64,000 nt of DNA from a virus. Where the stretch lies: positions 9,133 through 73,132 of the IMG/VR virus record IMGVR_UViG_3300028800_000081; one strand, written 5' to 3'. The position numbers and the translations under genes were made by a program. Positions 12,228 to 40,763 of this stretch are shown in pieces (position 1 is the stretch's first letter; every line of letters starts with the position of its first letter). The notes under the pieces were generated by a model, which was not told the DNA's origin, made no database searches, and saw only the letters and a program-made list of their open reading frames with translations.

Positions 12228-13178
12228 TTAGGCGTTCGCGGTTTTGTTAGTCTGATGATATTGCAGGCGCTTGCCCTTCGCTCCCGCCAATAAGGCGTCG
12301 GCGCGCGCTGCATCCGTCATGTGACGGCCATTATATCGGAAATCGAACTCGGCAAGATAACGTGGCAAATGTTGCTCGCTGATGCTGTGGAACGTGCCGT
12401 AAACGCCGCGCTTCAGGATCGCAAAATAGCTTTCAATCGTGTTGGTATGCATGAAGCCGCCAAGGCGCACATATTCGTCCGCCGAATGATTGACCGTGCC
12501 GTGACCGGAGAACTCCGCACCGATTGACGGATAAACCGTGCTTTCGTCCGTCATCAGGTACGACTTGCGGCTTGCGTGCTTCACGATGATAGGGCGAAGC
12601 GTCTTGGAGTTCACGTTCGCAACATGGAAGGAGCGGACATGTCCGCCGTCACGCTCGACAAGGGCGAACACGGGAGACTTTTTCGGGATCGGGCCAAACG
12701 CCTTATTCTTCGCCTTGCCTCCGATATACGTTTCGTCACCTTCAACGACCTTGTTCTTACCGCCTAAAGGGCGCGGCTTCTTCGCAATCGGGCATTCCCG
12801 CAAACGATGCGCGAGGAACCAAGCCGCCTCGTAACTGATATCCAGCATCCGATGCAGTTGAAGGGCGCTAATGCCTTTCTTGCTCGCCATCATCAGGTGC
12901 GAGGCCATGACCCATTTTGTCAGCGGGATATGGCTGCGCTCCATGACGGTTCCGACCGTGACGCTGAAGGGCTTGCGGCAATCTTTGCAGTTGTAAACGC
13001 CCGGGCGGGTGCTCTTCCCGGCAAGCTTTGTGATCCGGCCCCCGAACTGGCCACAACGCGGGCACGTAGCCCCGGCGTCCTTCCACAGGACGCTTTCCAG
13101 ATGTTCCCGCGCCTTGTCCTCATCATTGAAAATGGGGTTGCGGATATCGAACGATTGCTTGGGGAATTTCTTGGACAC
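12228..13178 (-). CDS. IS1595-family DDE transposase
   Basis: Zn ribbon CPRC/CKDC, HTH, and VEGDETY, MTDE, HTNTIESYF, YLAEFDFRYN motifs. Confidence 0.95.
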   Translation of the reverse strand: MSKKFPKQSFDIRNPIFNDEDKAREHLESVLWKDAGATCPRCGQFGGRITKLAGKSTRPGVYNCKDCRKPFSVTVGTVMERSHIPLTKWVMASHLMMASKKGISALQLHRMLDISYEAAWFLAHRLRECPIAKKPRPLGGKNKVVEGDETYIGGKAKNKAFGPIPKKSPVFALVERDGGHVRSFHVANVNSKTLRPIIVKHASRKSYLMTDESTVYPSIGAEFSGHGTVNHSADEYVRLGGFMHTNTIESYFAILKRGVYGTFHSISEQHLPRYLAEFDFRYNGRHMTDAARADALLAGAKGKRLQYHQTNKTANA

Positions 13179-14056: not shown

Positions 14057-14090
14057 TTGGCCTCGCGGGCGACTGCAGGGCCACATTTTT
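14057..14090 (+). terminator. Probable terminator between converging operons
   Basis: TGGCC...GGCCA stem followed by CATTTTT. Confidence 0.4.
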
Positions 14091-14808
14091 ATGCGCGGCA
14101 AACACGACATTGGAGCGCGGCCATTGGGTCGCGGCGCGTCTCTCGCGGAACGCGGCCCTTCTCAAATTCGGCCCGCAACAGCCGAAGCGATGCAGGCCAT
14201 GTGTCCCGTTGAGGCGAGCGAAACGTGAAGCCAGTCAATTCCTCATAAGCCTCGCCTTCGAGGTATGCGGGCAGATTGTCCCTCCAAAGCTCAAACCACT
14301 GAATGAGTCGCTGGAAAAAACACAACATGCAATCCGTCCGGGCCGGAATTATGATCCCGCGTTGAGCGTTGAAAGACAGAACTTCGGCCAGCCCCATTCC
14401 AGCTTCCCGGAGCGGGAAAAGCATCTCGACGTTTGGCACATTCTGATAGTCTCCGCCCTCGCGCGCCGGTTCATCCGCGCGCAAGCCAACATAGAACTTT
14501 GCTGGCGAATGCTGCATCAGATAGGCGGCAAACGGCTCAATCTTCAGGACGCGCGTGCACCAACGCTGTCGCCAATTGGGAAGCGCCTTCCATTGGCGAA
14601 TGAGCCCGTCCAGTCCGCCAGGGTACATCAGAGGCAGAATAGGGCCGATACGGTCCCGCAAGACCTTCATGTGAGAGAACCACTCCGGCGGCTCATTGCC
14701 GGTCGGCGTGCAGACCCATTGAAAATCAATTTCAGGGTGCGTTTCTTTGAGCAACACAGCCATCGCAACGCTGTCCTTGCCGCCTGAGATCGCGCCAATA
14801 TGGTTCAT
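14089..14808 (-). CDS. PAPS reductase / PP-loop family protein
   Basis: ISGGKDS PP-loop, RWCTRVLKIEP, VGLRADE and CxxC motifs. Confidence 0.85.
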   Translation of the reverse strand: MNHIGAISGGKDSVAMAVLLKETHPEIDFQWVCTPTGNEPPEWFSHMKVLRDRIGPILPLMYPGGLDGLIRQWKALPNWRQRWCTRVLKIEPFAAYLMQHSPAKFYVGLRADEPAREGGDYQNVPNVEMLFPLREAGMGLAEVLSFNAQRGIIIPARTDCMLCFFQRLIQWFELWRDNLPAYLEGEAYEELTGFTFRSPQRDTWPASLRLLRAEFEKGRVPRETRRDPMAALQCRVCRA

Positions 14809-15212: not shown

Positions 15213-16118
15213 CGCGCTCTGGCTTGTCCATGGTTATCCGGTTAGCGGACAGGGGGGATAGTCGTTGACGCTAGCAGTTCGGCGCGAATCTCCATCCAGA
15301 GCTTGCCGAGCATGTTCTGGCCTTCACGATACGGACCCCAACCCCAGAAGTTGTCGCGCCACGAATTTTCGATCAGTGTCCGCTCGCCCGTCGCCAATAG
15401 CTTGCGCCTAACATATTCGTGTTGAATGGTTTTGGCACGAAGGATGTCGCGCATGACGCCAATCTTCACCGTATCCCAATCACGGCGCTGGAAGCTCTTG
15501 TTTTCCTGTGCAAGCTTGAACGCCTCATGGGCGGAAGCGGCGAAGCGGATATTGTCGGCAATGAGCCACGCTTGCGCCCCGATGGCTGGGCTTTGTCCTT
15601 CCTGTCCGGTAGCGAACCTTTCCCAATGATATGCCGCCTCTGATGTATCGAAATCCCTTCCGCGCCACTGAATGCGGAAAGCTGAGAAATTCGATAGGAC
15701 ATAGAAATCCTGTTCGTAGAAAAACACCTGCGTCTCATTGTCGAGTCCGTGAATTTCCATCACCTACTCTCCTTCTGTGTCATCGTATCGGTATCAGCGC
15801 GCTCTGGCTTGGGCTCGACCGTGGAGCGTGGCGTGGCGGTATATCATGGCAAGCCGCTCCGCAATTTTGCGAAATCCATTGTCGCAAAAAGCATCGCTTC
15901 GTCGAGTTGCTTGATAACGGATAACATCATGGCAACGTCGTCATATAGTAGTTTTGGCCCGGACCAACGCCCCGTTGCTTTCCATTGCTGAACAGAGATT
16001 TCTAGCTGTTGAAGTCGTTCGCGCTGGCGATCTCTCGCGTCATCCATTGTTGCGATGTTTGCTCCCATCACCCCTCTCCCGTTGCGGAATGCTCGACGCG
16101 CTCTGGCTTGGGCTCGAC
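15213..16118. repeat. Dispersed direct repeat CGCGCTCTGGCTTG(GGCTCGAC)
   Basis: Exact 22-bp copies at 15798-15819 and 16097-16118; 14-bp copy at 15213-15226. Confidence 0.8.
15242..15763 (-). CDS. NADAR (YbiA-like) family protein
   Basis: LSNFS, TSEAAY, RRDWDTVKIGVM, LLATGERTLIENSWRDNFWG and GQNMLGKLWMEIR motifs. Confidence 0.92.
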   Translation of the reverse strand: MMEIHGLDNETQVFFYEQDFYVLSNFSAFRIQWRGRDFDTSEAAYHWERFATGQEGQSPAIGAQAWLIADNIRFAASAHEAFKLAQENKSFQRRDWDTVKIGVMRDILRAKTIQHEYVRRKLLATGERTLIENSWRDNFWGWGPYREGQNMLGKLWMEIRAELLASTTIPPVR

Positions 16119-26128: not shown

Positions 26129-28170
26129 ATGAGCGCCTCCCGGAAAGGTCTGAAGCGTCTCGGGCTTCGCCGGTATATCGTGGAAGGCCCGCGTCCGATG
26201 GTCATAGAGCGGGACCGCCCCTGGCGCTGGTTTGTTAGGCCGGCGTCCTATCCCAACGCGCCCGGCGGGTTCTTCTCGCAGACATTCCGGCGCCTTCGGT
26301 GCGCGCGGGCCTATGCGGAAGCGCAGGCGGGGATCGAACCATACCCCTATCTTGATATTCCTGTCTGTCTTCGCCGCTGGAAGCCGGGAGCGCGGACTTG
26401 ACGAATCTCGCGGGACAGTCATTAACTATTCGCGTCGGGGCGACGGTCTCGGCAAATGCGGCTGTCAGCCAGTCTCAGAGCGTGAATGCTGCAAAGCACT
26501 CCCTTCGAGGCTGAGACTGGCGGCAGTTCCTTGAAGGGGAAACGACATGCCTCAATCACTCAAAGACGCACTTGAACGCCTAGCGGTTGCGGGCCGGTAT
26601 CGTCCGCCTGGCGACATTCTGGCTGGCCCGCGCCGTCCAGAGCCGTTCCGCTGGTGGGTCGATAGGGCGAACTGATGGGCAAACAATCCTCGGTCAATTT
26701 CAGTGACAAGGCGAAGCGCGCGCGCGGCATTGAGCCGAGCGATGCGCTGAAGGAAAACGAGCGGCTGCATCTCGAGCTGATGGCGGCACAGCGGGCCGTG
26801 ACGGCCAAGGAGGCCCTGATGCGGGGCCGGCTCGAACGCATCCGTTCCGACGTCCGCGCGGCCGTTGAGGCTATGGACGCCGGACGTCGCGGCGAAGGCA
26901 TGCAGATCCTCCGCGCGCTTGTGCGGCCCAAGGACGGCAAGCTTTCCAGCGGTGAGCCCGCAGAGCCGGACGCGGCATGAGCGAAGATCAACCAAAATTC
27001 GAATATCGGTACATCCAGACTCGTCCGTGCGAGTGGTCCGTTTTTTTGATTTTCGACGACGAGTCGAACGTCTGGCGCCGCGTCGCCGTCTTTGTGAGTG
27101 AGGCGCGCGCGAAAAGCTACGCCGAAATCGAGCAGATGCGCGACGAGTGGGAAGGTGACAAGGGCGGCGAGGAAGGCGAACTGCTGTGCCAGATAACGGC
27201 GCGCGAACTCCCGGCCTCCCGCGTCACGCCTGATCGCATGATCCGCCGCGAGAGCATCGCGCACACCAGGATCGAACGTACCGAGGAAATCAGCCGAGCC
27301 GCTGTTGCGCTATTAACGCGCGAGGATCTCGCTGAGCTTCCCGCCGCGGTCATTGCGGAATTGAGCCCTGCCGCGCAGGCAGTTGCACTTTCACCCCCGG
27401 AACCTGCAATTGAGGCCACGCCTGTTGCTGTTAAAGGCAACACTCCAGAGCCGCCCGACGACGGCGCCGAGGAATATCCGCCCCTGCCAGAAGCGATCGA
27501 CTGCGCGACGCTTGAGCCGCTGACGGCGCTTCAGTTCAAGGTGCTTTCCGCCGTCCTCATGACGCGCGGCGCGGAAACATCCGGCGTCGCCTTGGACAAG
27601 GCGTCGGGCGTCATTGGCGCGTCGACACACACTCTTTCGCTCGCGAAAAAAGGCTACATCAGAATCCGCAAGCTTGGAAAGCATCGCTACGCCTATGACG
27701 GCCTGACGTTCGGGGCCCCGCGCGTAGGCGTGTACGATTCGAAAGCTGGGAAATGCGTCGGAAAATATGACGCGCCAGCCTCATTGCCTTCCAAAGCCGT
27801 TGAGCACCGACCTGCAGAGGTTGCAGCGGCTACCAAACCAGCGCAGAAATCAGAACCGGCGCGGGTCGCACCTATAAGTATCAGCCCCTCACCTGCAAGT
27901 AAGCCGTCTCACGCCCGCCCGACGCCTCCCAACGGCACACGCTTCCCCATCGCTGGCGACCCCGAGCATGGCCGCAGCGCGCTCGACGCCGACGATGGCC
28001 GCATCCATGTCATCTCCTACCTGACGCGCAAGGGTCACACGGTGTCGCTGGCTGAAGGTGGCTGGCGGGTGGATGGGCGGATCAAGCGCGTCGACGAAGC
28101 ACTGGAGTTGATCAACAGCTACCGCGCCAAGGCGGAACTTCCGCCCGCGCTCGCGAGCATGCTGGCATGA
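26129..28170 (+). other. Hypothetical ORFs (26129-26401, 26675-26980, 26977-28170 with possible winged HTH)
   Basis: Coupled ORFs leading into dnaB. Confidence 0.5.
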
Positions 28171-29672
28171 ACAAGCCGGAGAAAGACTTCAGACGATCGC
28201 TGCCCTGTTCGATCGAGCTTGAACAGGCCGCCATCGGGGCCTGTTTGGTCGACAACCGGCTGATCGAAGTCCTCGCCGCCGACCTTGAGCCCGAAGCTTT
28301 GTTCGACCCGCTTCACCAGCGCATCTATGGGCTCATCCTCGCGCTCTCGGCCGAAGGCAAAGTCGACCCGCTGATCCTCAATTCCGTGATGGCGCACGAT
28401 GACGGCCTCAAGATCGTCGGAGGCATCGGCTACCTCGCGAATCTCGCCCAGGCGGCACCGGCTCGCCCGAACGTCACGGAATACGCGCGCGCGCTCAAGG
28501 AACTCGCCCAACGCCGCCGGCTGATCGAGATAGGCGAATCGCTTCTTGACGACGCCTATGCGGCGACGGGCGATCGGTCCTCGGATGAACTCGTGACCCG
28601 CCACGCCGACGCGCTGCTCCGAATCGGGGAGGGGCGAAAGACCGGGACGAAGCACCTTGCCGACGTTGTCACGGCCAGCCTCACGCAAGCCGAGAAGCAT
28701 CTGGCGGGCGAGAAGATTGCGGCCGTCGAGACAGGTATCGGCCCGTTTGATCGCGCCATAGGCGGCCTACAGCCGGGCGACCGGGTAGCGATCGCGGCTC
28801 GCACCGGAATGGGCAAGAGTTTGACCGCCTCGGCAATCGCCAACGGACTGGCGCGGAATGGTGCACCGGTCTTCATCGCAAGCGGTGACATGCGGGCGAA
28901 GCAATGGGGCGATCGCGCGGCGTGCGACGTTGAGTCGTTCCTGCATCCAGGAGAGCCCTACATTTCGTATTCGAAGTTCCGGGCCGGCCTGCTCTCTAAC
29001 AAGGAAATCTATCGCCTGGCGCTCGCGCAACACGAGATGCAGGCATGGGCGATCGACATAGACGACAATCCGACGATCAACGTGGCGACGTTCCGCGGCC
29101 GGGTGCGCGAGATGGCGCGGCGGTATCCGGGCCAGCAAGGCGTTGCGATCCTGGACTTCATCCAGAAGGTCAAGCCCGAGAAGGGCGGAAAGCGCGACCA
29201 GCGGCGCGACGAAGACCTGACGGAGATATCCTACGACCTCGGCGATATCTGTGGAGAACTCGGCTGGTCGCTGATTGCCTTGGTGCAGCTCAAGAACAAG
29301 GCGACCGACGCCAAGGGACAGCTTTCCGAGGCGCCGCCCAGCGTTGCCGATATCCGCGAATCGGGCGGGATCGAGATGGCCTTCGACATCATCGTCAGCC
29401 CGTTCCGCAAGGCGTTTTTCATCGAGCGCCGTGAGCCTGAAGGCAAGCACAACGCCGGCGGCCCGCCGCCTGAATGGATCTCGTGGAACGCCGAAATGGC
29501 GGAGCATCGGAACAAGCTTCGCCTGCTCGGGTGGAAGAATCGGGACGGCAACGCGGCGGTGCTCAATCTCGATCTGTGGTGCAACCCCGCGACCGCGACG
29601 GTCTGCGAATACGCGCCGGAACGCAGCACGCAACAGACAGCCGACCTTCTGGCGTTCGGAGCGCCGGGGTGA
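28167..29672 (+). CDS. dnaB: Replicative helicase, DnaB family
   Basis: N-domain ELEQAAIGACL/HQRIY; Walker A ARTGMGKS; ILDFIQ; DIRESGGIE; KNRDG. Confidence 0.92.
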   Translation: MNKPEKDFRRSLPCSIELEQAAIGACLVDNRLIEVLAADLEPEALFDPLHQRIYGLILALSAEGKVDPLILNSVMAHDDGLKIVGGIGYLANLAQAAPARPNVTEYARALKELAQRRRLIEIGESLLDDAYAATGDRSSDELVTRHADALLRIGEGRKTGTKHLADVVTASLTQAEKHLAGEKIAAVETGIGPFDRAIGGLQPGDRVAIAARTGMGKSLTASAIANGLARNGAPVFIASGDMRAKQWGDRAACDVESFLHPGEPYISYSKFRAGLLSNKEIYRLALAQHEMQAWAIDIDDNPTINVATFRGRVREMARRYPGQQGVAILDFIQKVKPEKGGKRDQRRDEDLTEISYDLGDICGELGWSLIALVQLKNKATDAKGQLSEAPPSVADIRESGGIEMAFDIIVSPFRKAFFIERREPEGKHNAGGPPPEWISWNAEMAEHRNKLRLLGWKNRDGNAAVLNLDLWCNPATATVCEYAPERSTQQTADLLAFGAPG

Positions 29673-30709
29673 GCGCCTACTACAATGAAATCGACCCCTA
29701 TGCAGCACAATGGCTGCGCAACCTTATTGCTGCGGGACACATTGCCGATGGTGAAGTTGACGAACGATCAATCATCGACGTTCCCGCCGCCGATCTCCGC
29801 GACTTCACGCAATGCCATTTCTTCGCTGGAATCGGCGGGTGGTCTGTCGCACTCAGGCTCGCAGGATGGCCCGATGATCGACCTGTTTGGACAGGAAGTT
29901 GCCCCTGCCAGCCCTTTAGCGCCGCCGGAGCGGGCAAGGCGGCCGATGACAGCCGTCACCTGTGGCCTGCGTGGTTTTCTCTCATCTCCGTCGCACGCCC
30001 TGCAATCGTCTTTGGAGAGCAGGTTGAAGCGGCAATTGGATGGGGTTGGCTCGACGCTGTTTTCGCTGACATGGAAGGCGCGGGCTACGCCTGCGGGGCG
30101 TCCGTACTTCCAGCTTGTGGCATCGGCGCGCCGCACATCAGACAGCGAACTTGGTTCGTGGCCGACGCCAATGGCGGGGACGCCGGCGCAGCGGGGCTAC
30201 AACGAAGCGGGGAACACGGACAGCGGGCGCAAGACGGTCGCGCTGGTGAGTTCCTGGCCGACTCCGCGCGCGGAAGACAGCGAGAGTTCGGGAATGCGTC
30301 ACGGCCGCGGAGTGGCGGACACTCTGACGGCGGTATCGAGCCTAGCGGCTTGGACAACCCCGCAAGCGCACGACACGCACAAGCGCGGCGCGGGGAATCG
30401 CCTCAATCCGAAGGGCGGCGGGGGATGTTTGGCGTCGGAAGCGATCCTCGCGAGTTGGGCGACACCAACGGCGGACGACGCGGACAATGTGACGAGGGCG
30501 AGCGGCCAATATCAATCGCTAACGCGACAGGCGATGACGCTTGGTCAAATCTCGAATGGCTCGCCTGCACAGACGGAAGATCGCGGCCAGTTGAGCCCGG
30601 GACATTCCCGCTGGCTCATGGGATACAGCGTCGAACATCTAAGCTGCGCGCCTACGGCAATGCCATCGTCCCGCAAGTCGCGGCGGAGTTCATAAAGGCG
30701 TTCGCGTGA
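29669..30709 (+). CDS. C5-cytosine DNA methyltransferase, alpha chain
   Basis: Motifs I FFAGIGG, IV PCQPFS, VI EQV, VIII HIRQRTW and X YGNAIVPQVA; no motif IX. Confidence 0.9.
   Translation: MSAYYNEIDPYAAQWLRNLIAAGHIADGEVDERSIIDVPAADLRDFTQCHFFAGIGGWSVALRLAGWPDDRPVWTGSCPCQPFSAAGAGKAADDSRHLWPAWFSLISVARPAIVFGEQVEAAIGWGWLDAVFADMEGAGYACGASVLPACGIGAPHIRQRTWFVADANGGDAGAAGLQRSGEHGQRAQDGRAGEFLADSARGRQREFGNASRPRSGGHSDGGIEPSGLDNPASARHAQARRGESPQSEGRRGMFGVGSDPRELGDTNGGRRGQCDEGERPISIANATGDDAWSNLEWLACTDGRSRPVEPGTFPLAHGIQRRTSKLRAYGNAIVPQVAAEFIKAFA
29874..30695 (+). CDS. Probable methyltransferase beta chain in overlapping frame
   Basis: Open >270 codons inside the alpha gene; WPTP repeats; motif IX-like GQLSPGHSRWLMGY. 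Confidence 0.7.
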   Translation: MIDLFGQEVAPASPLAPPERARRPMTAVTCGLRGFLSSPSHALQSSLESRLKRQLDGVGSTLFSLTWKARATPAGRPYFQLVASARRTSDSELGSWPTPMAGTPAQRGYNEAGNTDSGRKTVALVSSWPTPRAEDSESSGMRHGRGVADTLTAVSSLAAWTTPQAHDTHKRGAGNRLNPKGGGGCLASEAILASWATPTADDADNVTRASGQYQSLTRQAMTLGQISNGSPAQTEDRGQLSPGHSRWLMGYSVEHLSCAPTAMPSSRKSRRSS

Positions 30710-30938
30710 CGTTCCCTCTTGCATCGCGCCCGTTGTGATTCGTCTCGCGGAGGCACAAGACATAGCGGCTTGCGATTTTCCGAATCTGGGCCAATCGTGA
30801 GGGGCTTGACGGGCGCGGTCGACTTGCCGCACATTCCGTCCGCTTGATGGCCCTAAGCAAGCCATCTGTTCGCGGTTGTCGGCCGGGCCTGGGCGTTCCA
30901 GGTCAGGCTCGGCGGCAGCTCCCTGGAACCGTAGGAAC

Positions 30939-31400
30939 ATGAACTCAGTCACAAATACGCCCAGAAGCAATCAGCACGATCCAGCCAGAGACGCGCGGAT
31001 CGTTGCTCACTATCTGACGCCGCACTCAATGGAAGAGACGGGCGCGGAATTTGGCATCTCGAAGCAGCGCGTTCATCAAATTTTGGACCGCGTTGGGGTA
31101 GCTATTAGGCACGGCATCGGCGCCACAATGGCTGCGAGAATCGCTTCAGGGCAAGTCGCTCGCGCAGAGGCTGAAGCTAAGACAAAGGTCAAACGGGATC
31201 GCCAATTGCGGCAAAAAACCATTGCCGCGCTTGCTTTTGGCGATGGATATAGATTGCGCGAAATCGCTCGGTTTCTTGATTTTAATAGTCCGCAGCATGT
31301 GAATTCGTTGCTTCGAAAGATTGGCGCCCCTTTCCGAAAGCCAGAGGCGCACGAGCATATGAAACGCCGATGGGAAATGCGGCGCGAGTTAGCGAAATGA
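30939..31400 (+). CDS. Sigma70 region-4-like double-HTH protein
   Basis: SMEETGAEFGISKQRVHQIL and YRLREIARFL. Confidence 0.7.
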   Translation: MNSVTNTPRSNQHDPARDARIVAHYLTPHSMEETGAEFGISKQRVHQILDRVGVAIRHGIGATMAARIASGQVARAEAEAKTKVKRDRQLRQKTIAALAFGDGYRLREIARFLDFNSPQHVNSLLRKIGAPFRKPEAHEHMKRRWEMRRELAK

Positions 31401-31552
31401 AAATTACGCCTTCCACATTCACGCAAAGCCGCCCGGCATTATGCCGTCTGAGCGGTCAGCATGGCTATGGAAAGCGAAACGGCCCGGTGCCTTTGAGGGC
31501 GTTCCGGGCCGCTTGCGTAGGGAGGAAAAGCCTTCCGAGGGGCGCGCTTGAT

Positions 31553-31888
31553 ATAGCGTTTCCCCACTCCCCGCGCAAGCCGATCCGTCCTCAACGGCCC
31601 GGCGGTCGCCTAGACCGTCACAAATCGCTGGCTCTGCTCCCCACGGCACCCAGCGGCCCAAACGGAGCGCGCGCGAGCGCGAACGTATGAGATGGTGACG
31701 GTCGGGAAACCCCAAGTCCAAAGCCTCGTAGGGTTTTCCAGGAGGGCGGCCATAACAACGCTCTCAGGCGGACGGCCTTAAGGACAGGGCCGGGGCGAAA
31801 GCCCGAGTGACGAGTACGCGGGGGAGGAATCCTCTTGGCCATAGGCGGCCTCCACCATACTCCGGTGGGCGGAAAGTGGGGAAGCTAT
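31553..31888 (+). ncRNA. Large structured non-coding element (RNA or ssDNA origin)
   Basis: Nested long-range helices and a GNRA hairpin; no convincing ORF; strand assumed. Confidence 0.6.
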
Positions 31889-31899
31889 GGAGAGGCGCG

Positions 31900-32349
31900 A
31901 TGAAGGCGACGGTCGGAAGCAAAAAGTGGCACAAGCGCCACAAGCGAAAGATGCACAAACGCAGAGGCGCTTCGTGGTGCCTCGTGTACGGGCTCTATGA
32001 CCCGCGCGACGAAGCAAAGGCGATCCGGTATGTCGGGCAAACGAGGAATTCTAAAGTTCGCCTCGCCTATCATCTGAAAAACGCGCGCGACGGGAAAGCC
32101 GGCCGCGTTCTCGCTTGGATACGCGAACTATTGGACGCTGGCGTTGCTCCCGTGCTGGCGGTCCTCGACGGCGATGGCGCGTGGGACGTCTCAGAGATTA
32201 TCTGGATCGAACGGCTGCGCGTCGGCGAAGCCGATCTTCTGAATGTGCTTCGCGGTGGCTGCGATCAAACGCAACGCCGCGGACGGATCGAACGACATCC
32301 TGACGCAATCGCGCTGAACGAAGAATTTCGCGCGGTGATCGGCCCGTGA
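31900..32349 (+). CDS. GIY-YIG-like nuclease
   Basis: VYGLYDPRD...IRYVGQT...RLAYH...E..WI...LLN. Confidence 0.7.
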   Translation: MKATVGSKKWHKRHKRKMHKRRGASWCLVYGLYDPRDEAKAIRYVGQTRNSKVRLAYHLKNARDGKAGRVLAWIRELLDAGVAPVLAVLDGDGAWDVSEIIWIERLRVGEADLLNVLRGGCDQTQRRGRIERHPDAIALNEEFRAVIGP

Positions 32350-32386
32350 ACCACATCAACCCGAGCGAATGGAAAGGCGAACTGCC

Positions 32387-33118
32387 ATGAGGGAAATTGA
32401 CAAGACTGCGATGTCGTACTGGTTCCCGAAGATTGAGGCGGCTGGGCTTCCTGTCCCTCGCACGACGATGGTGCCAATGCCGACTGATGCACAGCGCGAC
32501 TTATTCCGAAGCTTTGACCAAGAACAGATGCATGGCGAATACGCTGCGTTCGTCAAGACACTTGAGCCGATAGCCGAATCCCTTGGATATCCATGTTTTG
32601 TGCGGACGGAATTCACATCCGCGAAACACGATTGGGAATTAGCATGTTACGTCAAGGCGTACGCGGAATTGGCCGACCATATTTCGCACATCGTATATTT
32701 CAGCGAGTGCTGCGCTCCCGGAGGAGAGTTAGGTTACAACTTTTGGGCAATCCGAGAGTTCCTTCCTACGATGCCCATCGGCGTCTGCCGCGGATACAGC
32801 AACATGCCGATTTGCCGAGAGTTTCGGTTTTTCGTCGAAGACGATAAAGTTGTGTGCTGGCATCCCTACTGGCCTCGTCACGCGCTTGACGATGGCAACC
32901 CGGTATATTCCGGACCCCCTATGAGTTACGAAGAATTCTGCACGCCGCCAGACTTGGCCGCGCTAGAAAAGATCGCATCTGATGCAGGGCGCGCTGTTGG
33001 CGGAGCTTGGTCGGTCGACCTTCTCGAAACGAAGCGCGGATGGTTCCTGACTGACATGGCAGAAGCGCACAGGTCTTTCCATTGGGAAGGTTGCCAAGTT
33101 CACGGAAAGCAACGCTGA
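32387..33118 (+). CDS. ATP-grasp domain protein (R2K-like)
   Basis: GYPCFVRT..SAKHDW, IREFL, REFRFFV, WSVDLL and WFLTD. Confidence 0.7.
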   Translation: MREIDKTAMSYWFPKIEAAGLPVPRTTMVPMPTDAQRDLFRSFDQEQMHGEYAAFVKTLEPIAESLGYPCFVRTEFTSAKHDWELACYVKAYAELADHISHIVYFSECCAPGGELGYNFWAIREFLPTMPIGVCRGYSNMPICREFRFFVEDDKVVCWHPYWPRHALDDGNPVYSGPPMSYEEFCTPPDLAALEKIASDAGRAVGGAWSVDLLETKRGWFLTDMAEAHRSFHWEGCQVHGKQR

Positions 33119-33702
33119 TGGACGACACGCAATTCGCCAACGGCCTGCTCGAATTGTGGACGGCTCACGACACAGCCGGGTCACGAACCTACATCGCATC
33201 GAACGGCGGCATGTCTCGTGTCATTGCCCTCGCTGTCCGCGGCGCCGTGCGGGCAAAGCGTGATGCGACCAAGACCGCGAAGGGCACGCCGCTGTCTGCG
33301 GACTTCCCGGACCGAATCGCCCTCGACAACGCCCTCGAATACTGGCGCAAGCACAAGCGGCCCGACATCTGCCTGAAGATCGAAGAGGTCTCGGATCACT
33401 TCCGCCGTCACCACGCGGAGCACAAGGCGCTGAGCTGGCCCCGCACCTGGGCGACGTGGTACTGCAATCAGATCAATTTTATCCGCGCGCCGGCGTCGAT
33501 GCAGACCGCAACCGTCATTCCCATCAACGGCACGCCGCAAGAGTGGGCGAATCGGGTGCGGATTTGGGACGGCACGAGCGGCGACGCTGACCTTCCGCCC
33601 GGCACATGGTCGGACAAATGGGGCCCGAAGCCCGGCGAGCCCGGTTGCCGAGTCCCGGACGAAGCGTATGGTCTGGCGAGACCGAAAGCAGCGAGGGCGT
33701 GA
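33118..33702 (+). CDS. Replication protein C-terminal-type (DnaT-like) domain protein
   Basis: FRRHH...SWPRTWATWYCN and WGPKPGEPGCRVP, typical of C-termini of alphaproteobacterial phage initiators. Confidence 0.55.
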   Translation: MDDTQFANGLLELWTAHDTAGSRTYIASNGGMSRVIALAVRGAVRAKRDATKTAKGTPLSADFPDRIALDNALEYWRKHKRPDICLKIEEVSDHFRRHHAEHKALSWPRTWATWYCNQINFIRAPASMQTATVIPINGTPQEWANRVRIWDGTSGDADLPPGTWSDKWGPKPGEPGCRVPDEAYGLARPKAARA

Positions 33703-34496
33703 TGGGTGAGAGAACCGAAATTTCATGGGCGGACAGCACGTTCAATCCGGTCGTGGGATGCACGAAGGTGAGCGCGGCATGCGATCATTGCTACGCGGAA
33801 TCTTGGGCCAAGCGGGCCGGTCAGCCGGAGTTGTGGCAGGGCGAACGCCGCCGCACGACGCCTGAGAACTGGCGCAAGCCTCTGAAGTGGGATCGCGATG
33901 CCGCGCTGTCGGGGCGCCGACCGCGCGTGTTCTGCGCTTCGCTGTCGGATGTGTTCGACAATCAGTGGGAACCAGAATGGCGTAGAGACCTGTGGCAACT
34001 GATAGCCGAGACACCGCATCTCGATTGGCTGTTGTTGACGAAGCGGCCGCAGAACATCGCGAAAATGCTTCCGAGCGGCGACCTCGCAAAATTCCTCCCG
34101 TGGCCGTGGCCGAATGTTTGGCTCGGCACGACGGCAGAAAATCAGACTGAGGCTAACAGGCGGGTGCCGCACCTCGTCGCAGTTCCTGCGGCCGTCCGGT
34201 TCCTCTCATGCGAGCCGCTGCTCGGACCGATCAATCTCGCACTGGCGGGATTGGAGGTATGCTTGAACGACTTCGACACGCCATGCACGACGAACATTTC
34301 GTGGGTGATTTCAGGCGGGGAGAGTGGGTCGCATCATCGCCAAACGGACCCCGCGTGGATCCGGTCGTTGCGCGATCAGTGCTACGCTGTGGACATTGCG
34401 TTCCATCACAAACAGAACGGCGGCAAACGGCCGAAAGATGGCGGATGTTTGCTCGACGGTCGCGAGCACAAAGAGTTTCCGAGGATGGCAGCGTAA
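33702..34496 (+). CDS. Phage Gp37/Gp68 (DUF5131) family protein
   Basis: TEISWADSTFNPVVGCTKVSAACDHCYAE, LLLTKRP, FLSCEPLLG and WVISGGESG. Confidence 0.92.
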   Translation: MGERTEISWADSTFNPVVGCTKVSAACDHCYAESWAKRAGQPELWQGERRRTTPENWRKPLKWDRDAALSGRRPRVFCASLSDVFDNQWEPEWRRDLWQLIAETPHLDWLLLTKRPQNIAKMLPSGDLAKFLPWPWPNVWLGTTAENQTEANRRVPHLVAVPAAVRFLSCEPLLGPINLALAGLEVCLNDFDTPCTTNISWVISGGESGSHHRQTDPAWIRSLRDQCYAVDIAFHHKQNGGKRPKDGGCLLDGREHKEFPRMAA

Positions 34497-35875
34497 TGGC
34501 AAAGGTTGGAACACGAGCGGCCCCGAAGCTCCCCGCGCAGGCGAACGGCAAGCCGCTCGAGATCGTGTACCGCGATCCGAAGGAACTGAAGCCGGATGCG
34601 AGAAATTCTCGTGTCCATAGTCCCGAGCAAATTGAACAACTCAGGGCCTCGTATCGACGCTTCGGATGGACGTCGCCGGTCTTGCTTCGTCCTGACGGTT
34701 CAATCGGTGCCGGTCACGCTCGCGTGCGCATGGCGATCCTCGAAAAGATCAAATCCGTCCCCACCGTCACGATCGACCTCACCGAGAAGCAATGGCGCGC
34801 GTACGCAATTGTGGACAACCAGTCCGCACTCAATGCTTCTTACGATCTCGACATTCTCCGCACCGAACTCGACGAGCTAAACGGCGACTTCAACCTAATC
34901 GAGGAAATGGGCTTTTCACTCGACGAACTCGCGGACCTCGAAGTCCCAGGATTCACGCTCGACGAAACAAACGAGCGCGCCGAAGAGACGCCGCCTGTTC
35001 CTGCAAATCCGGTCGTGAAGCGCGGCGAGCTTTGGCTGCTCGGGAAGCATCGTGTGCTATGCGGCGACTCGACGAAGGCTGACGACGTGGCGCGGCCTCT
35101 CAACGGCGCGAAGCCGCATCTGATGGTCACCGATCCGCCGTATGGCGTGAACTACGATGCCGACTGGCGCAATCGCGCCGACAGAGCAAACGGGCGTCCC
35201 TACGGCGCTCGCGCGGTAGGGAAAGTGACGAACGACAACCGATCCGATTGGCGCGAAGCGTGGGCGCTCTGCCCTTCCGACGTAATTTATGTTTGGCACC
35301 CGGCGGGTGCCAAACAGGTGGAATTTTTCCACAGCATCGTCGATTCTGCATTCGAATTTCGAATGCAGATCATCTGGGCGAAGCAACAATTCCCAATCGG
35401 CAGAGGCGACTATCACGTCAAGCACGAACCTTGCTGGTACGCGGTGCGCAAAGGCAAGACCGCGCACTGGAACGGGAGTCGCACAGAGTCGACGCTGTGG
35501 GAGATCGACAAGCCGCACAAATCAGAAACGGGGCACTCGACACAGAAACCGATTGAGTGCATGCGCAAGCCCATCCTAAACAATTCGAAGCCCGGAGATT
35601 CCGTCTACGACCCGTTCCTCGGCTCTGGAACAACGCTCATCGCAGCCGAGATGGAGAAGCGCATCTGTCTAGGAATTGAGATCGCGCCAGAATATGTCGA
35701 GGTCATCATCCGACGCTGGGAAAAGTTCACATCCAAAACTGCGAAACGCGAAGACGGCGCAACGCTTGAAGACCTTCTCGACGCCAGAACGGCTGGTAAG
35801 GCTGTGGCTGGCATCGCGACCGGCAAGACGAAGCTCGTCCGTGGCAAGCGGCTCGCCAAGGCTCTGGCGACGTGA
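34496..35875 (+). CDS. ParB-N domain fused to N6A/N4C DNA methyltransferase
   Basis: RNSRVHSPEQI/AGHAR ParB-like domain; TDPPY, HSTQKP and DPFLGSG. Confidence 0.92.
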   Translation: MAKVGTRAAPKLPAQANGKPLEIVYRDPKELKPDARNSRVHSPEQIEQLRASYRRFGWTSPVLLRPDGSIGAGHARVRMAILEKIKSVPTVTIDLTEKQWRAYAIVDNQSALNASYDLDILRTELDELNGDFNLIEEMGFSLDELADLEVPGFTLDETNERAEETPPVPANPVVKRGELWLLGKHRVLCGDSTKADDVARPLNGAKPHLMVTDPPYGVNYDADWRNRADRANGRPYGARAVGKVTNDNRSDWREAWALCPSDVIYVWHPAGAKQVEFFHSIVDSAFEFRMQIIWAKQQFPIGRGDYHVKHEPCWYAVRKGKTAHWNGSRTESTLWEIDKPHKSETGHSTQKPIECMRKPILNNSKPGDSVYDPFLGSGTTLIAAEMEKRICLGIEIAPEYVEVIIRRWEKFTSKTAKREDGATLEDLLDARTAGKAVAGIATGKTKLVRGKRLAKALAT

Positions 35876-36057
35876 CCCGCGTCCTGCAATGGGCACGCAC
35901 GGAAGCCGAGGCGAAGCGCATGCAGGCCGAGGGCTGGATCGTGCCCGAGCAGGCCGTGACGCATCACACGCGCTGGTCGATCCTGCTCGAATGGCCCGGC
36001 CCCGGCGATCCTCCCGGACTTGACGCCGCCCCGCCACAGGCCGCAGATGGCTGAGAT

Positions 36058-36148: not shown

Positions 36149-37291
36149 TTGGCTAAGCAAGCCGTACCAAAACTCATCCGAACGTACAAGTTCCGATTGC
36201 TGCCGCGCAAGGCGCAGCACGTCCGTTTGCGCGCTGCGCTTGATCACACACGAGATATTTACAACTCCGCGCTGGAGTCCCGCATCTCTGCCTACCAGAA
36301 GCTCGGCAAGACGATGGGCTATGTGCGCCAGTGTCGTGAGCTTACGGAATTGCGCGGCGATCCCGGTTACACGGAATTTCCAGTCGCTCTCCAGCGCTGG
36401 CCGTTGAAGCGGCTTGACGACGCGTTCGCCGCATTCTTCCGCCGTGTGAAAGCAGGCGATAGCCCTGGCTTTCCTCGCTTCAAGGGCCGCGACTGGTTCA
36501 AGAGCTTCGGCTTTTCTGATCGCTATGGCTGGAAGCTAGACGGCTCGCGCCTCTACATGAAAGGTATCGGTCGCGTGAAGGTGCATATGCATCGTGCGTT
36601 GCCATCCGCGCCGATTTTGTGCCAGATCAAACGCGATGCGAATGGTTGGGCTGTTCTACTCGTCTGCGAGGTAAGTGCCGAGCCATTGCAGGAAACTGGC
36701 AGAAACATCGGCATCGACCTCGGCATAACGTCGTTCATCGCCACGTCGGACGGCGAGACGGTGCCAGGGTTTCACGCGGCGAGGCGTGCGCAAGCGCAGA
36801 TGCGCAGGCGTTCGAGGGCGCTTGAAAGATGCAAGCGGGGTTCGCGCAACAGGCGGAAGGCGAAGACTTGCGTTACGGCGGCGCATGAAAGCATCGCCAA
36901 CGAGCGCCGAACGTTCCTGCATCAAGTGGCAGCGAAACTTGTGCGCGAAAATGACATGATCGCCGTCGAAAATCTAAACGTCAAAGGTCTTGCGCGCGCC
37001 ATGCTTGCCCGCGATGTCAACGATGCTGGATGGTCCACCTTCACACGCCTCCTAATCGAAAAGGCTGAGAGAGCCGGTCGGTTGGTCGTAAAAGTCGATC
37101 CTAGATACACGAGCCAAGCCTGTTCCGGCTGTGGGGTTATCGTGCCGAAGGCGCTAGGCGTCCGCGTGCACGATTGCCCAGATTGCGGATTGCGTTTGGA
37201 TCGTGACGTAAACGCAGCAAAAAATGTGCTGCACAGGGCGGTAACGCGCCCTGACGCGCTTCAATGCCGGGAGTCACTGGTATGCGCGTAG
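36149..37291 (+). CDS. tnpB: RNA-guided endonuclease TnpB, copy 2
   Basis: TYKFRLLP, GIDLG, AVENL, CSGC/CPDC and DRDVNAAKN; catalytic triad intact. Confidence 0.95.
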   Translation: MAKQAVPKLIRTYKFRLLPRKAQHVRLRAALDHTRDIYNSALESRISAYQKLGKTMGYVRQCRELTELRGDPGYTEFPVALQRWPLKRLDDAFAAFFRRVKAGDSPGFPRFKGRDWFKSFGFSDRYGWKLDGSRLYMKGIGRVKVHMHRALPSAPILCQIKRDANGWAVLLVCEVSAEPLQETGRNIGIDLGITSFIATSDGETVPGFHAARRAQAQMRRRSRALERCKRGSRNRRKAKTCVTAAHESIANERRTFLHQVAAKLVRENDMIAVENLNVKGLARAMLARDVNDAGWSTFTRLLIEKAERAGRLVVKVDPRYTSQACSGCGVIVPKALGVRVHDCPDCGLRLDRDVNAAKNVLHRAVTRPDALQCRESLVCA

Positions 37292-37466: not shown

Positions 37467-40221
37467 ATGAGCGATAACAAGATAACCGAAGCGTTTGAAA
37501 CGTACCTGCGCGATCCTGTCGTGCAACGCGCGTTGGAAATGCGGATGACAAGCGGCAAGTTATCGGTCGACCTGCTCCGCGATTGTTTCATGAACGGCGC
37601 GAAGTGCGCAGCCGATCTCCTTGTAAAGCAGAAAACCGAGGCAAGACGCTCATGAGATACGAACCGAGGAACTACACGCTCGACGCGGAGCACGGGCTCG
37701 CGCCTGACTGGCTTGAGAAGTTCCCGATGGTTACGCCGTTCGCGCGGAACTGCATCGTCGGCCTCGCAATCGCGCTGGCTTTAATCGCTTTCGCAATCAT
37801 TCATTGACCACTCGGAGGGAAACAACATGCGCGACAGAGAACAACAGAGTAGCGTGCTGATGGGCGCGCTGGACGAGGCTGAAATCTGGCAGCGTTCCCC
37901 GGTGAGACGCTGGAACTATCTGATCCTGGCCGCGACGTATCTCTGCGGCATGGCGATATTCGCAGCGTTTATGACAGCGATCGTTGCCGGCGTCTGGCTG
38001 GTGATCGGATTCGTGCAATCGCTTTTCGGAGGATGACATGGCATTGGACAGAGTTCTACACGGCGGAGAGAAGCCGCGCTCCCACGCTGCGGCGATGGTC
38101 GACGGGCTGAAGTGGGATTCTGGCAATAACGCTTGCCTGAGCTTCCACGCGCTTGCGGAGCTGGCGCGCCGCGGCGATCTGACGATCGAGCACGCAACCG
38201 GCGAGTCTGGCGCGATACATCTCAGGATTGACCCGCGATGAGCGACGAAACAACGTGGATGAAGTTTCATGTCGGCCAGCGCGTGTGGTGTGTGAACGAC
38301 AAACCGCACAATCCAAATCGGATACAAGCCCCTCATCGCCCCGCGAGAGCGTGAGGCTCTCATCTCGGCAATGTGCGGCTTGTGACCCCACCCAACCCGA
38401 AAGGTGAGAGATGAGCTATCGGATGTTCCGGCAGCAATGCAGCGACTGCAAAGCGGTCTGGAACGCGGCGTTTGGGATCGTCGGCATGACGAAGATCGCC
38501 GAGCCTCCGTCGAAGTGCCCGAAGTGCGCCTCGCCGAAAATTGCCTTCTTCGATCACGGGTGGGCAATGGATGACGGCTCGATATATCCCAAGCCTGTTG
38601 TAACGCACGTTGGCGATGCGGTTGTGCATGGCGACCGTGCTATGTCCGACAGCGAGATTGAAGCGATTGCGCTGATCGTCGAGGCTGCGAAGCAGAAGTT
38701 CGCATCCCCCACCCCACCAAAGGAGAAGACGTGATCTGCTCTGTCTGTGAAGGCGCGGGCAACATCATAGCTCGCAGCGATAGCGGCTCAGACTGGCGCG
38801 GGCGGTATGCGTCATGCCCTTGCTGCCGTGGTCGCGGCGCTCTGGATGGTGAAGGTGCCGCGCTAGACGACGCCACCCGCCGAATGCTGTATCCCATGCC
38901 GTCGCGATATAGGAGAGGCAACCGTGACTAGCTTCCTGACAGTATCTTCGACTGCGGGCTTCGAAAAAGGTGACATAATAGCCTTCCCTCCGGAGTGGAG
39001 GCCTGCCAAAGACCCCTGGTGGATTAGGGCATGGCGCTTGATCGTGCTGATGACCGTACGATACGAAGAAACTACAAGTATGATGGCCATTACCGACGTA
39101 TGTAATGGAACCACGCTCAAAATATGTCCAGCGCCATGATGCCCGCTCTCGCCCTCTCCGCCTTACTAGCCGCGCAGCCGGTGGTGAAGCCGTGTGCGGG
39201 CAATCATTTTTGCTACGTCAAATTCCCGGACGACGATTTAGTATGGACCAAAGGGGTTGGCCCTGAATATCTCTACATCCCAGATTGGTGCACGCAAGTC
39301 GCGCCGCACGTGTTCGCATGTGAGCATACAATCACGCTCCCCTCCCCACACAAGGACAAACCATGACCGATACCGCGCCACTTCCAAACTGCAAGGGCTC
39401 GTGGGCGATTGGCACGGCGTGCAAGAAATGCGACCGCTGCATTCAAGAAGCGCTAGCGACGCATCAAGGACTGCTCGATAGCCTGAAGGCTGCACGCGCC
39501 GCTACGGAATTCACGTTGAGGTTGCTGCCAGAAAAAACTGACGGCCACGATGTCGGTGATCAATTCAAGATCGCATGCTTTGACGAACTGAGGCGCATGA
39601 TGTGGGGAGCGAAGAAATAATGCCTGACCTGAGCCTCGCCGATTCCGCAGTTCTGCTCGCTGGAGCGATTGCGGCCGGCATTCTGTTCGCATGGGTTCGG
39701 CCGTTGACGGCGCGTAGGGGCTACACGCCTCATCATGGCGGCGACAAATCTCGACCTCCAAAAGGATCTGCGGTATGGACCAGTCGCACAACTCGCCACT
39801 TTTGACCTACTCCGACAAATCGAACGAAGAGCTAGCCGACGCGCTGACCGGCATGCTTGCCACGGCGGCACAGCTCAAACGCGACGGCGACATCGAGATC
39901 GCGGATTCGATCTGGGATGGACAGATTGCGCCGCTGCTCACAGAATGCGCGAGGCGGTTGCGCGTGACGAAAAGCGCGCCGCGCCCATACGTAGACCTCC
40001 GCGCGGTACCTGGCTCCGTATACTTTCGCGATTGCCACGGCGCGTTTTACCACTTGCGTCAATGCCAGTTCCCAATTGACGTTCTGGACGCCGCCCATTA
40101 CCCAAATTCTTTCGGTCGTGCGGTCAACGAATCGGACGCGCAGCAATTGATCAGCGACATATTCTACAAAACTCCGCCCGGCACCGTAATCGCCATTTCC
40201 GATCGGGTTCTCGATCTATGA
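37467..40221 (+). other. nin-like cluster of more than 10 small hypothetical ORFs
   Basis: Short coupled ORFs, several with CxxC motifs or TM helices. Confidence 0.55.
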
Positions 40222-40763
40222 CAGTCACGCACGCCAACGGGTCCAAGCCCAAAAAGCCGCAAGACCATCTCCGCTGGTACGTGGTGCGCACGGAATCCCG
40301 CCGGGAGAAGCGCGCGGCGCTCGAGATCGAAGCCATGGGCGTCACGGTCTTTCTCCCTCTGCACTACGAATTCGTGAAAGACGGCAAGTGGTACAAGCCG
40401 GAGGCGCGAGGCCCGCTGTTCCCCAGATATATCTTCATCATGGCCCGGCAGCGATCGCCCTGGGGAAAGATCCGCGACGCCCGCGGCGTCGAGCGCGTGA
40501 TCTGCAAGACAGACGGCACGCCGGTCCCCGTACCCTACCGGCAAATGCGCTTCATCCGCACCCGTCACAAGCGAGGCGAGAAGAAACGCATCGAGCCTAA
40601 ATTCAAGCAGGGCCAGCGGGTCCGCGTGACAAACGGCCCATTCGAAAGCTTCGAAGGCACATTCGACGGCTCGGCACAGAACCGCGTCAAGGTGCTGCTC
40701 AGCATCTTCGGACGCGAGACTGAGGTCCAGATACCCGAAACAGATTTGCGAGGCGTGGCGTGA
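40218..40763 (+). CDS. nusG: NusG-family transcription antiterminator
   Basis: WYVVRT, PLFPRYIF and KOW GQRVRVTNGPFESFEG...LSIFGRET. Confidence 0.9.
   Translation: MTVTHANGSKPKKPQDHLRWYVVRTESRREKRAALEIEAMGVTVFLPLHYEFVKDGKWYKPEARGPLFPRYIFIMARQRSPWGKIRDARGVERVICKTDGTPVPVPYRQMRFIRTRHKRGEKKRIEPKFKQGQRVRVTNGPFESFEGTFDGSAQNRVKVLLSIFGRETEVQIPETDLRGVA

Follow-up and report, generated by a model that had tools for sequence, protein, structure and literature searches.

Phage selfish nuclease genes are usually credited with short regulatory hairpins: in T4-like phages the leaders include hairpins that sequester the ribosome-binding site, and the 5' terminators of I-TevI, segB and mobE. Here we describe a structured element of ~335 nt that ends just before a small GIY-YIG nuclease gene in an uncultured soil phage of ~60% GC. 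The window analysed is the 64-kb stretch formed by bases 9133-73132 of a 73-kb IMG/VR virus record (IMGVR_UViG_3300028800_000081). Its nearest functional analogues would be the structured leaders found in front of phage nuclease genes: it is a folded RNA, encoded on the same strand as the gene and placed before the start codon, that travels with the nuclease gene and whose closing helix abuts the ribosome site. It differs from the T4-like leaders in being far larger and in not occurring only with the gene, since it persists without the nuclease in two lineages described below, and the accompanying nuclease, similar to endonuclease II, has no detected DNA-binding domain. What is seen is thus a 300-nt RNA with invariant blocks that outlives the nuclease gene.

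Several other described systems share part of this layout. Phages commonly carry group I introns with GIY-YIG genes, and intron and endonuclease gene occur there together or apart, as do structured RNA and GIY-YIG gene in our case; here, however, no intron core is detected, no gene is interrupted, and the open reading frame (ORF) comes after the fold, not within one of its loops. GOLLD and ROOL are likewise large, multi-helix, non-coding RNAs of unknown function that are carried by phages and move horizontally, but our element matches none of the Rfam models, is smaller and much rarer, and is linked to a nuclease gene rather than to tRNA genes. The HEARO and omega-RNAs of IscB, IsrB and TnpB are long structured RNAs in mobile elements that end at the start of a nuclease ORF; by comparison, the present RNA has no Rfam match, no RuvC or HNH protein beside it and no recognised guide segment, it can be separated from its nuclease, and the adjacent protein matches GIY-YIG only, the one TnpB gene of the window being 4.3 kb away. 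(A guide-type RNA would be expected at the 3' end of that TnpB gene.) Type III toxin-antitoxin systems of the ToxIN kind also place RNA first and nuclease second in a small mobile unit, and copies of our RNA without nuclease would correspond to orphan antitoxins; the likeness is one of layout, the RNA having no tandem repeats (31000-32400) and no terminator-like site on the + strand in 31300-32450, and the protein being of a GIY-YIG DNA-nuclease type and not a ToxN-type endoribonuclease. The Ssn nucleases are single-domain GIY-YIG proteins of 94 aa (family cd10448) flanked by a specific conserved nucleic-acid motif (SRM), which is short, dispersed and present in many copies (PMC11893778); they differ from our system, where there is one 300-nt element per genome and the protein, of 149 aa, is closest to T4 endonuclease II. 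The element matches no Rfam family, and it is most probably not a group I intron, an omega-RNA, a type III antitoxin or an origin. A limited search of the literature on GIY-YIG proteins and structured phage RNA returned no element of the kind, which leaves its unpublished status unproven.

A structured element that ends at a nuclease gene

The initial annotation, made from the letters of the window, had proposed a highly structured non-coding element abutting a GIY-YIG gene, and this holds: the + strand folds far beyond its shuffles, and the element is linked to the GIY-YIG gene. Its parts are given below; copies A and B are homologues in two other phages (loci L006 and L009), and X6 and X8 are a pond run and a freshwater run with contigs of close relatives.

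31480-31511, + strand: separate hairpin of 8 + 4 pairs, 42 nt before the element, seen in sequence and fold
31553-31888, + strand: structured element, ~335 nt, closed by helix 31553-31569 / 31875-31888
31555-31563, + strand: block a0 (AGCGY-UUC), including the 5' strand of the closing helix
31584-31589, + strand: block a1 (UCCGUC), whose UCCGU can pair with ACGGA of a2
31590-31660, + strand: variable hairpin domain within a1/a2, Y-shaped in the window copy (GGCGGUC/GACCGUC and CGCUGG/CCAGCG)
31661-31669, + strand: block a2 (AACGGAGCG), identical in the window copy, A and B
31668-31681, + strand: hairpin directly 3' of a2 (CGCGC-GCGA-GCGCG)
31704-31739, + strand: hairpin GGGAAACCC/GGGUUUUCC, overlapping a3; two natural substitutions keep its pairs
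31707-31716, + strand: block a3 (AAACCCCAAG), identical in the window copy, A and B, and starting with G in the X6 and X8 variants
31889-31895, + strand: Shine-Dalgarno-like GGAGAGG, directly after the closing helix
31900-32349, + strand: GIY-YIG protein of 149 aa, a small nuclease gene

The helices listed in the initial annotation can be read directly from the sequence. In the closing helix ATAGC (31553-57) and TTCCCCACT (~31561-69) pair with AGTGGGGAAGCTAT (31875-88); GACCGTCAC (31613-21) pairs with GTGACGGTC (31695-703) over 9 bp, and CGCGGGG is found at 31817-23. The separate upstream hairpin is also there, at 31480-31511, and the GIY-YIG ORF does start at 31900, 11 nt after the closing helix. 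Most of these helices reappear in the minimum-energy RNA fold of the + strand of 31540-31900 (the closing helix, GACCGTCAC/GTGACGGTC, GGGAAACCC/GGGTTTTCC, GAGGGCG/CGCTCTC, GGGC-GAAA-GCCC and CCACC/GGTGG), but CCCCGCG/CGCGGGG is absent from it. The energy of the + strand fold is -177.9 kcal/mol, against -153.6 +/- 5.5 kcal/mol for 100 shuffles, none of which does as well (z -4.40); z is -2.15 for the - strand as RNA and -2.61 for the + strand folded as DNA.

Rfam 15 (4227 models) gives no match at gathering score across the whole window, in agreement with the earlier reading that there is no group I or group II core, and at E up to 10 the segment 31300-32000 gives only three noise matches (E 3-8). 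ORFs crossing the element (106 aa on the + strand; 100, 74 and 79 aa on the - strand) have no Pfam match at E up to 0.1. A hammerhead-like UAUGAG...AAAC was rejected, its core bases being different and Rfam giving no match. Another candidate, a pseudoknot pairing the loop of an inner hairpin with the stretch that precedes the 3' closing strand (UGGUGG/UCACCA in A, UCCCCAC/GUGGGGA in the window copy), is weakened by copy B, where the loop sequence is buried in a stabler hairpin (-24.2 vs -10.1 kcal/mol). Three direct repeats of two copies each, individually borderline above chance by our estimate, bracket the element or recur inside it: 31464-31474/31884-31894 (10/11) flanks a 420-nt unit made up of the upstream hairpin and the element, 31478-31487/31593-31602 matches at 10/10, and 31691-31705/31902-31916 (13/15) links the element to the first nuclease codons.

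Three copies in unrelated phages

Copy A was found via the protein alone: a search of viral contigs with an alignment of 11 nuclease sequences (A1) returned L006 as its sole locus, and inspection of the DNA ahead of its homologous ORF (start 2438) then revealed the same blocks, ordered and spaced alike. Both AACGGAGCG and AAACCCCAAG are found, as far apart as in the window, within the 330 nt that immediately precede this ORF. Copy B came from a two-block (a2 + a3) pattern scan of viral contigs, with an identical sequence in a second sample (L014). It also has UCCGUC at the expected distance, and UAUUCCGUC, CUUGAUG and AGCGYAUUC are common to A and B, which excludes a chance match. The homologous elements occupy about 2100-2425 of L006 and about 1390-1686 of L009, and strong hairpins lie shortly upstream of both (L006 2002-2029; L009 about 1354-1384). 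The three phages, with GC contents of 46-60%, are unrelated: when all their ORFs of at least 50 aa are compared with one another by BLASTP, the only cross-genome hit is between the nucleases of the window phage and the A phage (45% identity), and the B phage shares no protein with either. The same comparison shows that the element is not spanned by a conserved protein-coding sequence in the three virus records.

In global alignment the three elements are only 47-58% identical, and ~30 nt are conserved across them. The collinear words of at least 6 nt common to all three are UCCGUC (a1), AACGGAGCG (a2) and AAACCCCAAG (a3); a fourth block, AGCGY-UUC (a0), can be read at the 5' end. Spacing is well kept, at 30/35/38 nt for a0-a1, 77/76/71 nt for a1-a2 and 46/51/52 nt for a2-a3 (window copy/A/B), and the blocks occur together once per genome, not as dispersed repeats. 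When the a1-a2 segment is folded in isolation, a UCCGU/ACGGA helix closes it, as the minimum-energy structure in the window copy and B and 0.6 kcal/mol above the minimum in A. The content enclosed by this helix differs: a Y-shaped pair of hairpins in the window copy, a 13-pair hairpin with a tail in A, a single 20-pair hairpin in B. A hairpin comes right after a2 in the window copy and in B (L009 1507-1524), with A ambiguous (GUCG/CGAC), and manual alignment gives outer closing pairs of UAGC/GCUA (window copy), UAGCGU/AUGCUA (A) and CAGC/GC(C)UG (B). Clustering of helices across copies gave noise only. The existence of the family and the layout of its core are, in our view, established: it is a small, apparently undescribed RNA family, mobile between unrelated phages. 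The detailed fold, above all in the 3' half, which may be lineage-specific, is a prediction from three copies.

The strand is indicated by two kinds of evidence. In all three copies the minimum energy is 8-11 kcal/mol lower on the + strand than on the - strand, and the z-score is always more negative on the + strand (-4.4 vs -2.15 in the window copy, -2.5 vs -1.4 in A, -1.1 vs -0.4 in B). In addition, the contigs of X6 and X8, whose element is 97-98% identical to that of the window, carry both G31706A and A31707G, which within GGGAAACCC/GGGUUUUCC change G.U to A-U and A-U to G.U opposite U31737 and U31736; the use of G-U pairs as a guide to the strand, proposed in the initial annotation, thus gives two natural substitutions that keep pairing on the + strand only. 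To judge from sequence, the element is likely transcribed from the + strand.

The family is rare. When the window and A elements were compared by BLASTN with 50,697 phage records, nothing matched; with 28100-36000 as the BLASTN query, the matches (60-80% identity) fell in methylase and other genes only. Scanning viral contigs for exact 18-mers produced one hit, a chance one inside a lysozyme-like gene. The two-block viral scan returned seven loci, A once, B twice and four judged by reading to be chance, one of them in a methylase gene and the other three (L010, L013 and L015) being one coding sequence in three IMG/VR samples. The three-block viral scan returned nine (A once, B twice, and six coding-looking hits again judged chance by reading), and 117 stretches fitted the same pattern in prokaryote genomes totalling 596 Gb; of these, no stretch had both full blocks, none matched an nhmmer profile of the three copies, and all are treated as chance. 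A back-translated nuclease pattern found A only and a DnaB search gave no relatives, the ATP-grasp relatives being only 24-25% identical. Against Rfam at E up to 10, A has one noise match and B none, with none common between copies.

The nuclease and its association with the RNA

The match of the nuclease to Pfam PF01541 (GIY-YIG; E 7.9e-4, 20.1 bits) falls below the cut-off of 22.6 bits. Its family is nevertheless recognisable in alignment A1, where Y30, G46, E99 and N115 are invariant, Y44 is nearly so, and R54 is present: the order of GIY and YIG motifs, then conserved Arg, Glu and Asn, is that of the GIY-YIG superfamily. All 11 aligned members have an Arg/Lys-rich N-terminus, and the Pfam scan detected no further domain, DNA-binding or other. 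The closest solved protein is T4 endonuclease II (PDB 2wsh, E 0.005). That enzyme degrades DNA and is not known to home or to need RNA. A word-indexed protein search gave 10 cluster relatives, and a profile search of 1.84 billion representatives gave 33 matches at E<=1e-30 and 940 at E<=1e-10, so the subfamily is not tiny; these cluster libraries hold sequences without their DNA context. In DNA collections the yield was lower: alignment A1 found two metagenome loci (L007 and L008), a single nuclease query in viral contigs found one weak hit of 36 residues (L002), tblastn against phage records found two weak hits in 640-kb uncultured phages, and 401 genomes of the class of a Flavobacterium gave none.

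The element ends 11 nt before the start codon of the GIY-YIG ORF in the window and 12 nt before that of the homologous ORF in A, on the same strand in both, and in the window the Shine-Dalgarno sequence comes directly after the closing helix. In A the two form a + strand unit between minus-strand operons, its ORF ending 4 nt from the stop of a NinB-like gene, and a sigma-70-like promoter match (10/12; L006 1992-2021) lies ~75 nt before the element; from its arrangement the unit has the look of a mobile cassette. L006 2002-2029 is also an 11-pair hairpin, terminator-like on the minus strand, that overlaps the + strand promoter-like site; the overlap suggests that the cassette was inserted between the NinB-like gene and its terminator. 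With its own sigma-70-like promoter and a length of ~800 bp, copy A makes this small family experimentally tractable. The window copy and A lie in replication/recombination modules, B among tail-fibre-like genes.

How strict the association is can be judged from both sides. Three nuclease loci have 130 nt or more of sequence upstream, and the RNA is present in two of them (the window and A, not L007; L008, with 90 nt upstream, was left out). On the side of the RNA, comparison with sequencing runs, of which 8 were found and none is listed as an RNA holder, gave one absence (parts of the stretch without contig cover being uninformative):

31931-33114, + strand: stretch absent in a freshwater relative (X8) and replaced there by 33 other letters; it takes in the complete ATP-grasp gene and all but the start of the GIY-YIG gene

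The junction rests on one 151-nt contig of depth 3.2. As the first ten nuclease codons are kept in this contig, the nuclease gene was probably lost by deletion. The RNA of the relatives is 97-98% identical to that of the window (7 differences in 368 aligned nt), compared with 4 differences in 55 nt of the next gene, small numbers both. The pairing in the window and A and the X8 contig without nuclease together indicate that RNA and nuclease travel together but can separate. The recurrence of the same placement in L006 supports the link with the GIY-YIG gene. The element may, as had been suggested, be an RNA partner of the GIY-YIG protein, but the RNA also occurs without the nuclease (B, X8) and the nuclease without the RNA (L007), and since each is found alone an obligatory partnership is unlikely.

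A possible leader that controls the nuclease

Family, placement and separability of RNA and nuclease are established by this analysis, and the + strand is likely. We are dealing with a real, rare and apparently undescribed family of structured elements tied to a mobile nuclease cassette, and what is said here of its function is a proposal. The reading we prefer, tentatively and at a little under an even chance, is that the RNA controls the endonuclease-II-like nuclease, with whose mRNA it would be transcribed as the 5' portion. The element would be the constant part of a small mobile cassette and would be transcribed as a + strand RNA of ~300-335 nt. In the full cassette, this RNA would form the 5' part of the nuclease mRNA and restrain a nuclease that could damage its own phage, by folding into a domain whose closing helix ends at the ribosome-binding site. 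The UCCGU block might pair either with ACGGA inside the RNA or with a look-alike ACGG at the start of the nuclease ORF, and the choice between these pairings would decide whether the nuclease is translated. More speculatively, conserved blocks that remain single-stranded could bind the Arg-rich N-terminus of the nuclease, giving autoregulation or inhibition in trans. Copies consisting of RNA only (B and the freshwater relative) would then be leftovers after loss of the nuclease, or nuclease-neutralising copies kept for their own sake. Gating of translation in this manner would be an unusually elaborate way for a phage to tame a dangerous enzyme.

Several features of the sequence are consistent with this proposal. 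The RNA lies on the strand of the gene, and in A it stands between a promoter match and the start codon; no such match precedes it in the window. By reading, a complement of a1 occurs within codons 1-10 of each nuclease ORF (GACGG in the window, ACGGAA in A). Bases 31902-31916 of the window ORF repeat 31691-31705 at 13 of 15 positions and can thus compete for GACCGUCAC at 31613-21, which can also form a local hairpin with GGCGGUC. In an extended fold of the window copy (31470-31910) part of the Shine-Dalgarno sequence and bases after the AUG pair with 31530-31549; the partner predicted for the start region in the extended fold of A is a different one.

Other observations weigh against such control. 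The nuclease accompanies only two of the three distinct RNA copies: B has no nuclease gene in its 28-kb record (43% complete), yet keeps all the conserved blocks and the domain closed by a1/a2, and downstream of it come two hairpins, with a U-run, and then a convergent helix-turn-helix (HTH) ORF, a layout, without nuclease and with hairpins of its own, that fits an RNA with its own job. The X8 contig, joining 31930 to 33115, keeps the end of the element (97% identity), the ribosome site and ten codons in the absence of the rest of the gene. Conversely, the L007 homologue (43% identical) has only ~130 nt with a hairpin upstream and no such RNA, and the distant homologues in 2 of 401 Alphaproteobacteria genomes have coding sequence upstream and no RNA. 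Compared with T4-like leaders the element is 3-5 times longer, with invariant blocks of 9-10 nt and a closed domain of several hairpins, and in the window no promoter-like site precedes it. The structural support is also uneven: B folds no better than its shuffles (z -1.1), a covariance model built from B alone scores 3.8 bits on the window copy and 2.3 on A with filters off, the a1/a2 helix shows no covariation since it is invariant in the three copies, and their 3' halves, after a3, have no word of at least 6 nt in common.

Other explanations

Many of these points suit the main rival, serious but in our view less likely than control of the nuclease: an independent RNA gene whose structured product acts in trans, as a ribonucleoprotein scaffold, decoy or ribozyme, and has spread horizontally, the GIY-YIG gene being a selfish passenger alongside. 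Free-standing homing endonucleases are typically present or absent beside a conserved gene, which serves as their target. Copies without nuclease in two lineages (B and the X8 contig) match that hallmark. In relatives the RNA differs at 7 of 368 nt, against 4 of 55 nt of the next gene (small numbers); B lies opposite a convergent gene, with hairpins and a U-run of its own in between, and blocks of 9 and 10 nt are invariant amid sequences otherwise 47-58% alike. On the other hand, in the window and A the RNA runs up to the ORF (11-12 nt) with neither terminator nor promoter nor spacer between, and the pair has evidently been transferred as a single unit; the DNA-binding domains that known homing endonucleases possess are missing from the nuclease, no protein partner is common to all three phages, and no promoter was found for the window copy or B. 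Considerably less probable, in our view, is an RNA that inhibits the nuclease in trans or confers immunity to it, in a weapon-plus-antidote module exchanged among phages and like those of type III, except that its 300-nt RNA is non-repetitive and its nuclease acts on DNA; the blocks would dock the Arg-rich tail, and copies of the RNA alone would protect against competitors carrying the nuclease. Very unlikely is an RNA cofactor or guide that gives the nuclease its target specificity, like the omega-RNA of IscB or TnpB. The geometry is that of IscB and HEARO, with a long structured RNA ending just before a nuclease ORF, and the protein has an Arg-rich N-terminus and no detected DNA-binding domain; but RNA and nuclease occur apart, the same Arg-rich tail is found in the L007 homologue without RNA, no variable guide-like segment and no match to HEARO or other guide-RNA families of Rfam was found, and T4 endonuclease II is not known to need RNA. 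Were the RNA to act in trans, whether as antidote, as cofactor or independently, it would represent a new kind of RNA-nuclease module, and would offer a compact candidate RNA for binding or controlling a DNA nuclease.

The remaining explanations dispense with a trans-acting or regulatory RNA of this kind, and we give each of them little credit. The initial annotation had raised a replication origin or primer, and the element could more generally act as DNA, as an origin, primer, R-loop site or folded single-stranded target of the nuclease. Location of the window copy and A in replication/recombination modules and the folding of the + strand as DNA (z -2.6) speak for this, as do known single-domain GIY-YIG nucleases that recognise motifs beside their own gene (PMC11893778). 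The DNA fold has a weaker z than the RNA fold, though, and 31000-32400 holds no tandem repeats and no iterons, only the three two-copy direct repeats of 10-15 nt; GC stays at 0.64-0.65 across the element with no AT-rich dip or switch in skew, there is one copy per genome, and B lies among tail-fibre-like genes, so that the origin or primer is not upheld and a DNA-level role in general is scarcely probable. Slightly less credible still is the absence of any function, the fold arising from GC-rich intergenic DNA and the blocks being remnants of cassette recombination. The poor fold of B, the bare recognition of the other two copies by its model and the ~30 conserved nt would be explained, but not the z of -4.4 in the window, the four blocks in the same order and spacing in three phages of 46-60% GC, or an RNA 97-98% identical in relatives with differing neighbour genes. 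Least probable of all is a degenerate or atypical self-splicing intron, or other ribozyme, with a homing endonuclease gene. GACCGUCAC-AAAU-CGCUGG may resemble a P3-J3/4-P4 segment; against this, none of the three copies matches an intron or ribozyme of Rfam at E up to 10, and there is no interrupted gene: upstream ORFs have their own stops before the element, downstream genes are complete (the ATP-grasp match spans profile positions 8-145 of 169 in one ORF), and B is flanked by a complete-looking 76-aa ORF and the convergent HTH ORF. Manual reading leaves 0 nt (A), 4 nt (B) and 6 nt (window copy) between the inner hairpins and the 3' enclosing strand, and thus no room for a P7 strand at that place.

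Gene neighbourhood in the window

Scanning of ORFs with Pfam and PHROG places the element among the following genes.

28167-29672, + strand: DnaB helicase
29474-30709, + strand: C5 cytosine methylase
30876-31400, + strand: sigma-70 region-4 HTH protein, with its own stop at 31400, upstream of the element
32369-33118, + strand: ATP-grasp protein (R2K clade), a variable passenger adjoining the nuclease gene
about 33118-33702, + strand: protein without family match
33606-34496, + strand: DUF5131 protein
34208-35875, + strand: ParB-methylase fusion

The element had been placed between helicase and replication genes. DnaB is indeed upstream, but the genes between and after are those for the methylase, the HTH protein, GIY-YIG, ATP-grasp, a protein without family match, DUF5131 and the ParB-methylase fusion. 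Reverse transcriptase, said to be absent nearby, is not among the domains of the 59 Pfam-scanned translations of 73 crudely called ORFs. Farther out in the window are a TnpB gene, an IS1595 transposase, RecT, a NusG-like gene, a portal gene and tail genes. The TnpB-type gene (OrfB_IS605, with Cas12f1-like TNB and HTH domains; 36149-37291, + strand) lies 4.3 kb downstream of the element with five genes between, and the IS1595-family transposase (DDE_Tnp_IS1595 and zinc ribbon) is at 12228-13178 on the - strand. The NusG-like protein is encoded at 40218-40763 (+ strand), a PAPS-reductase-like protein at 14089-14808 and a NADAR-domain protein at 15242-15763 (both - strand).

The methylase region holds two overlapping + strand ORFs in different frames, 29474-30709 and 29685-30695, both of which match methyltransferase families of PHROG (phrog_363 at 2.3e-81, phrog_1008 at 2.3e-33), the Pfam C-5 methylase domain being found in 29474-30709 only. 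This may reflect a family built on the wrong frame, or a genuine gene overlap or frameshift.

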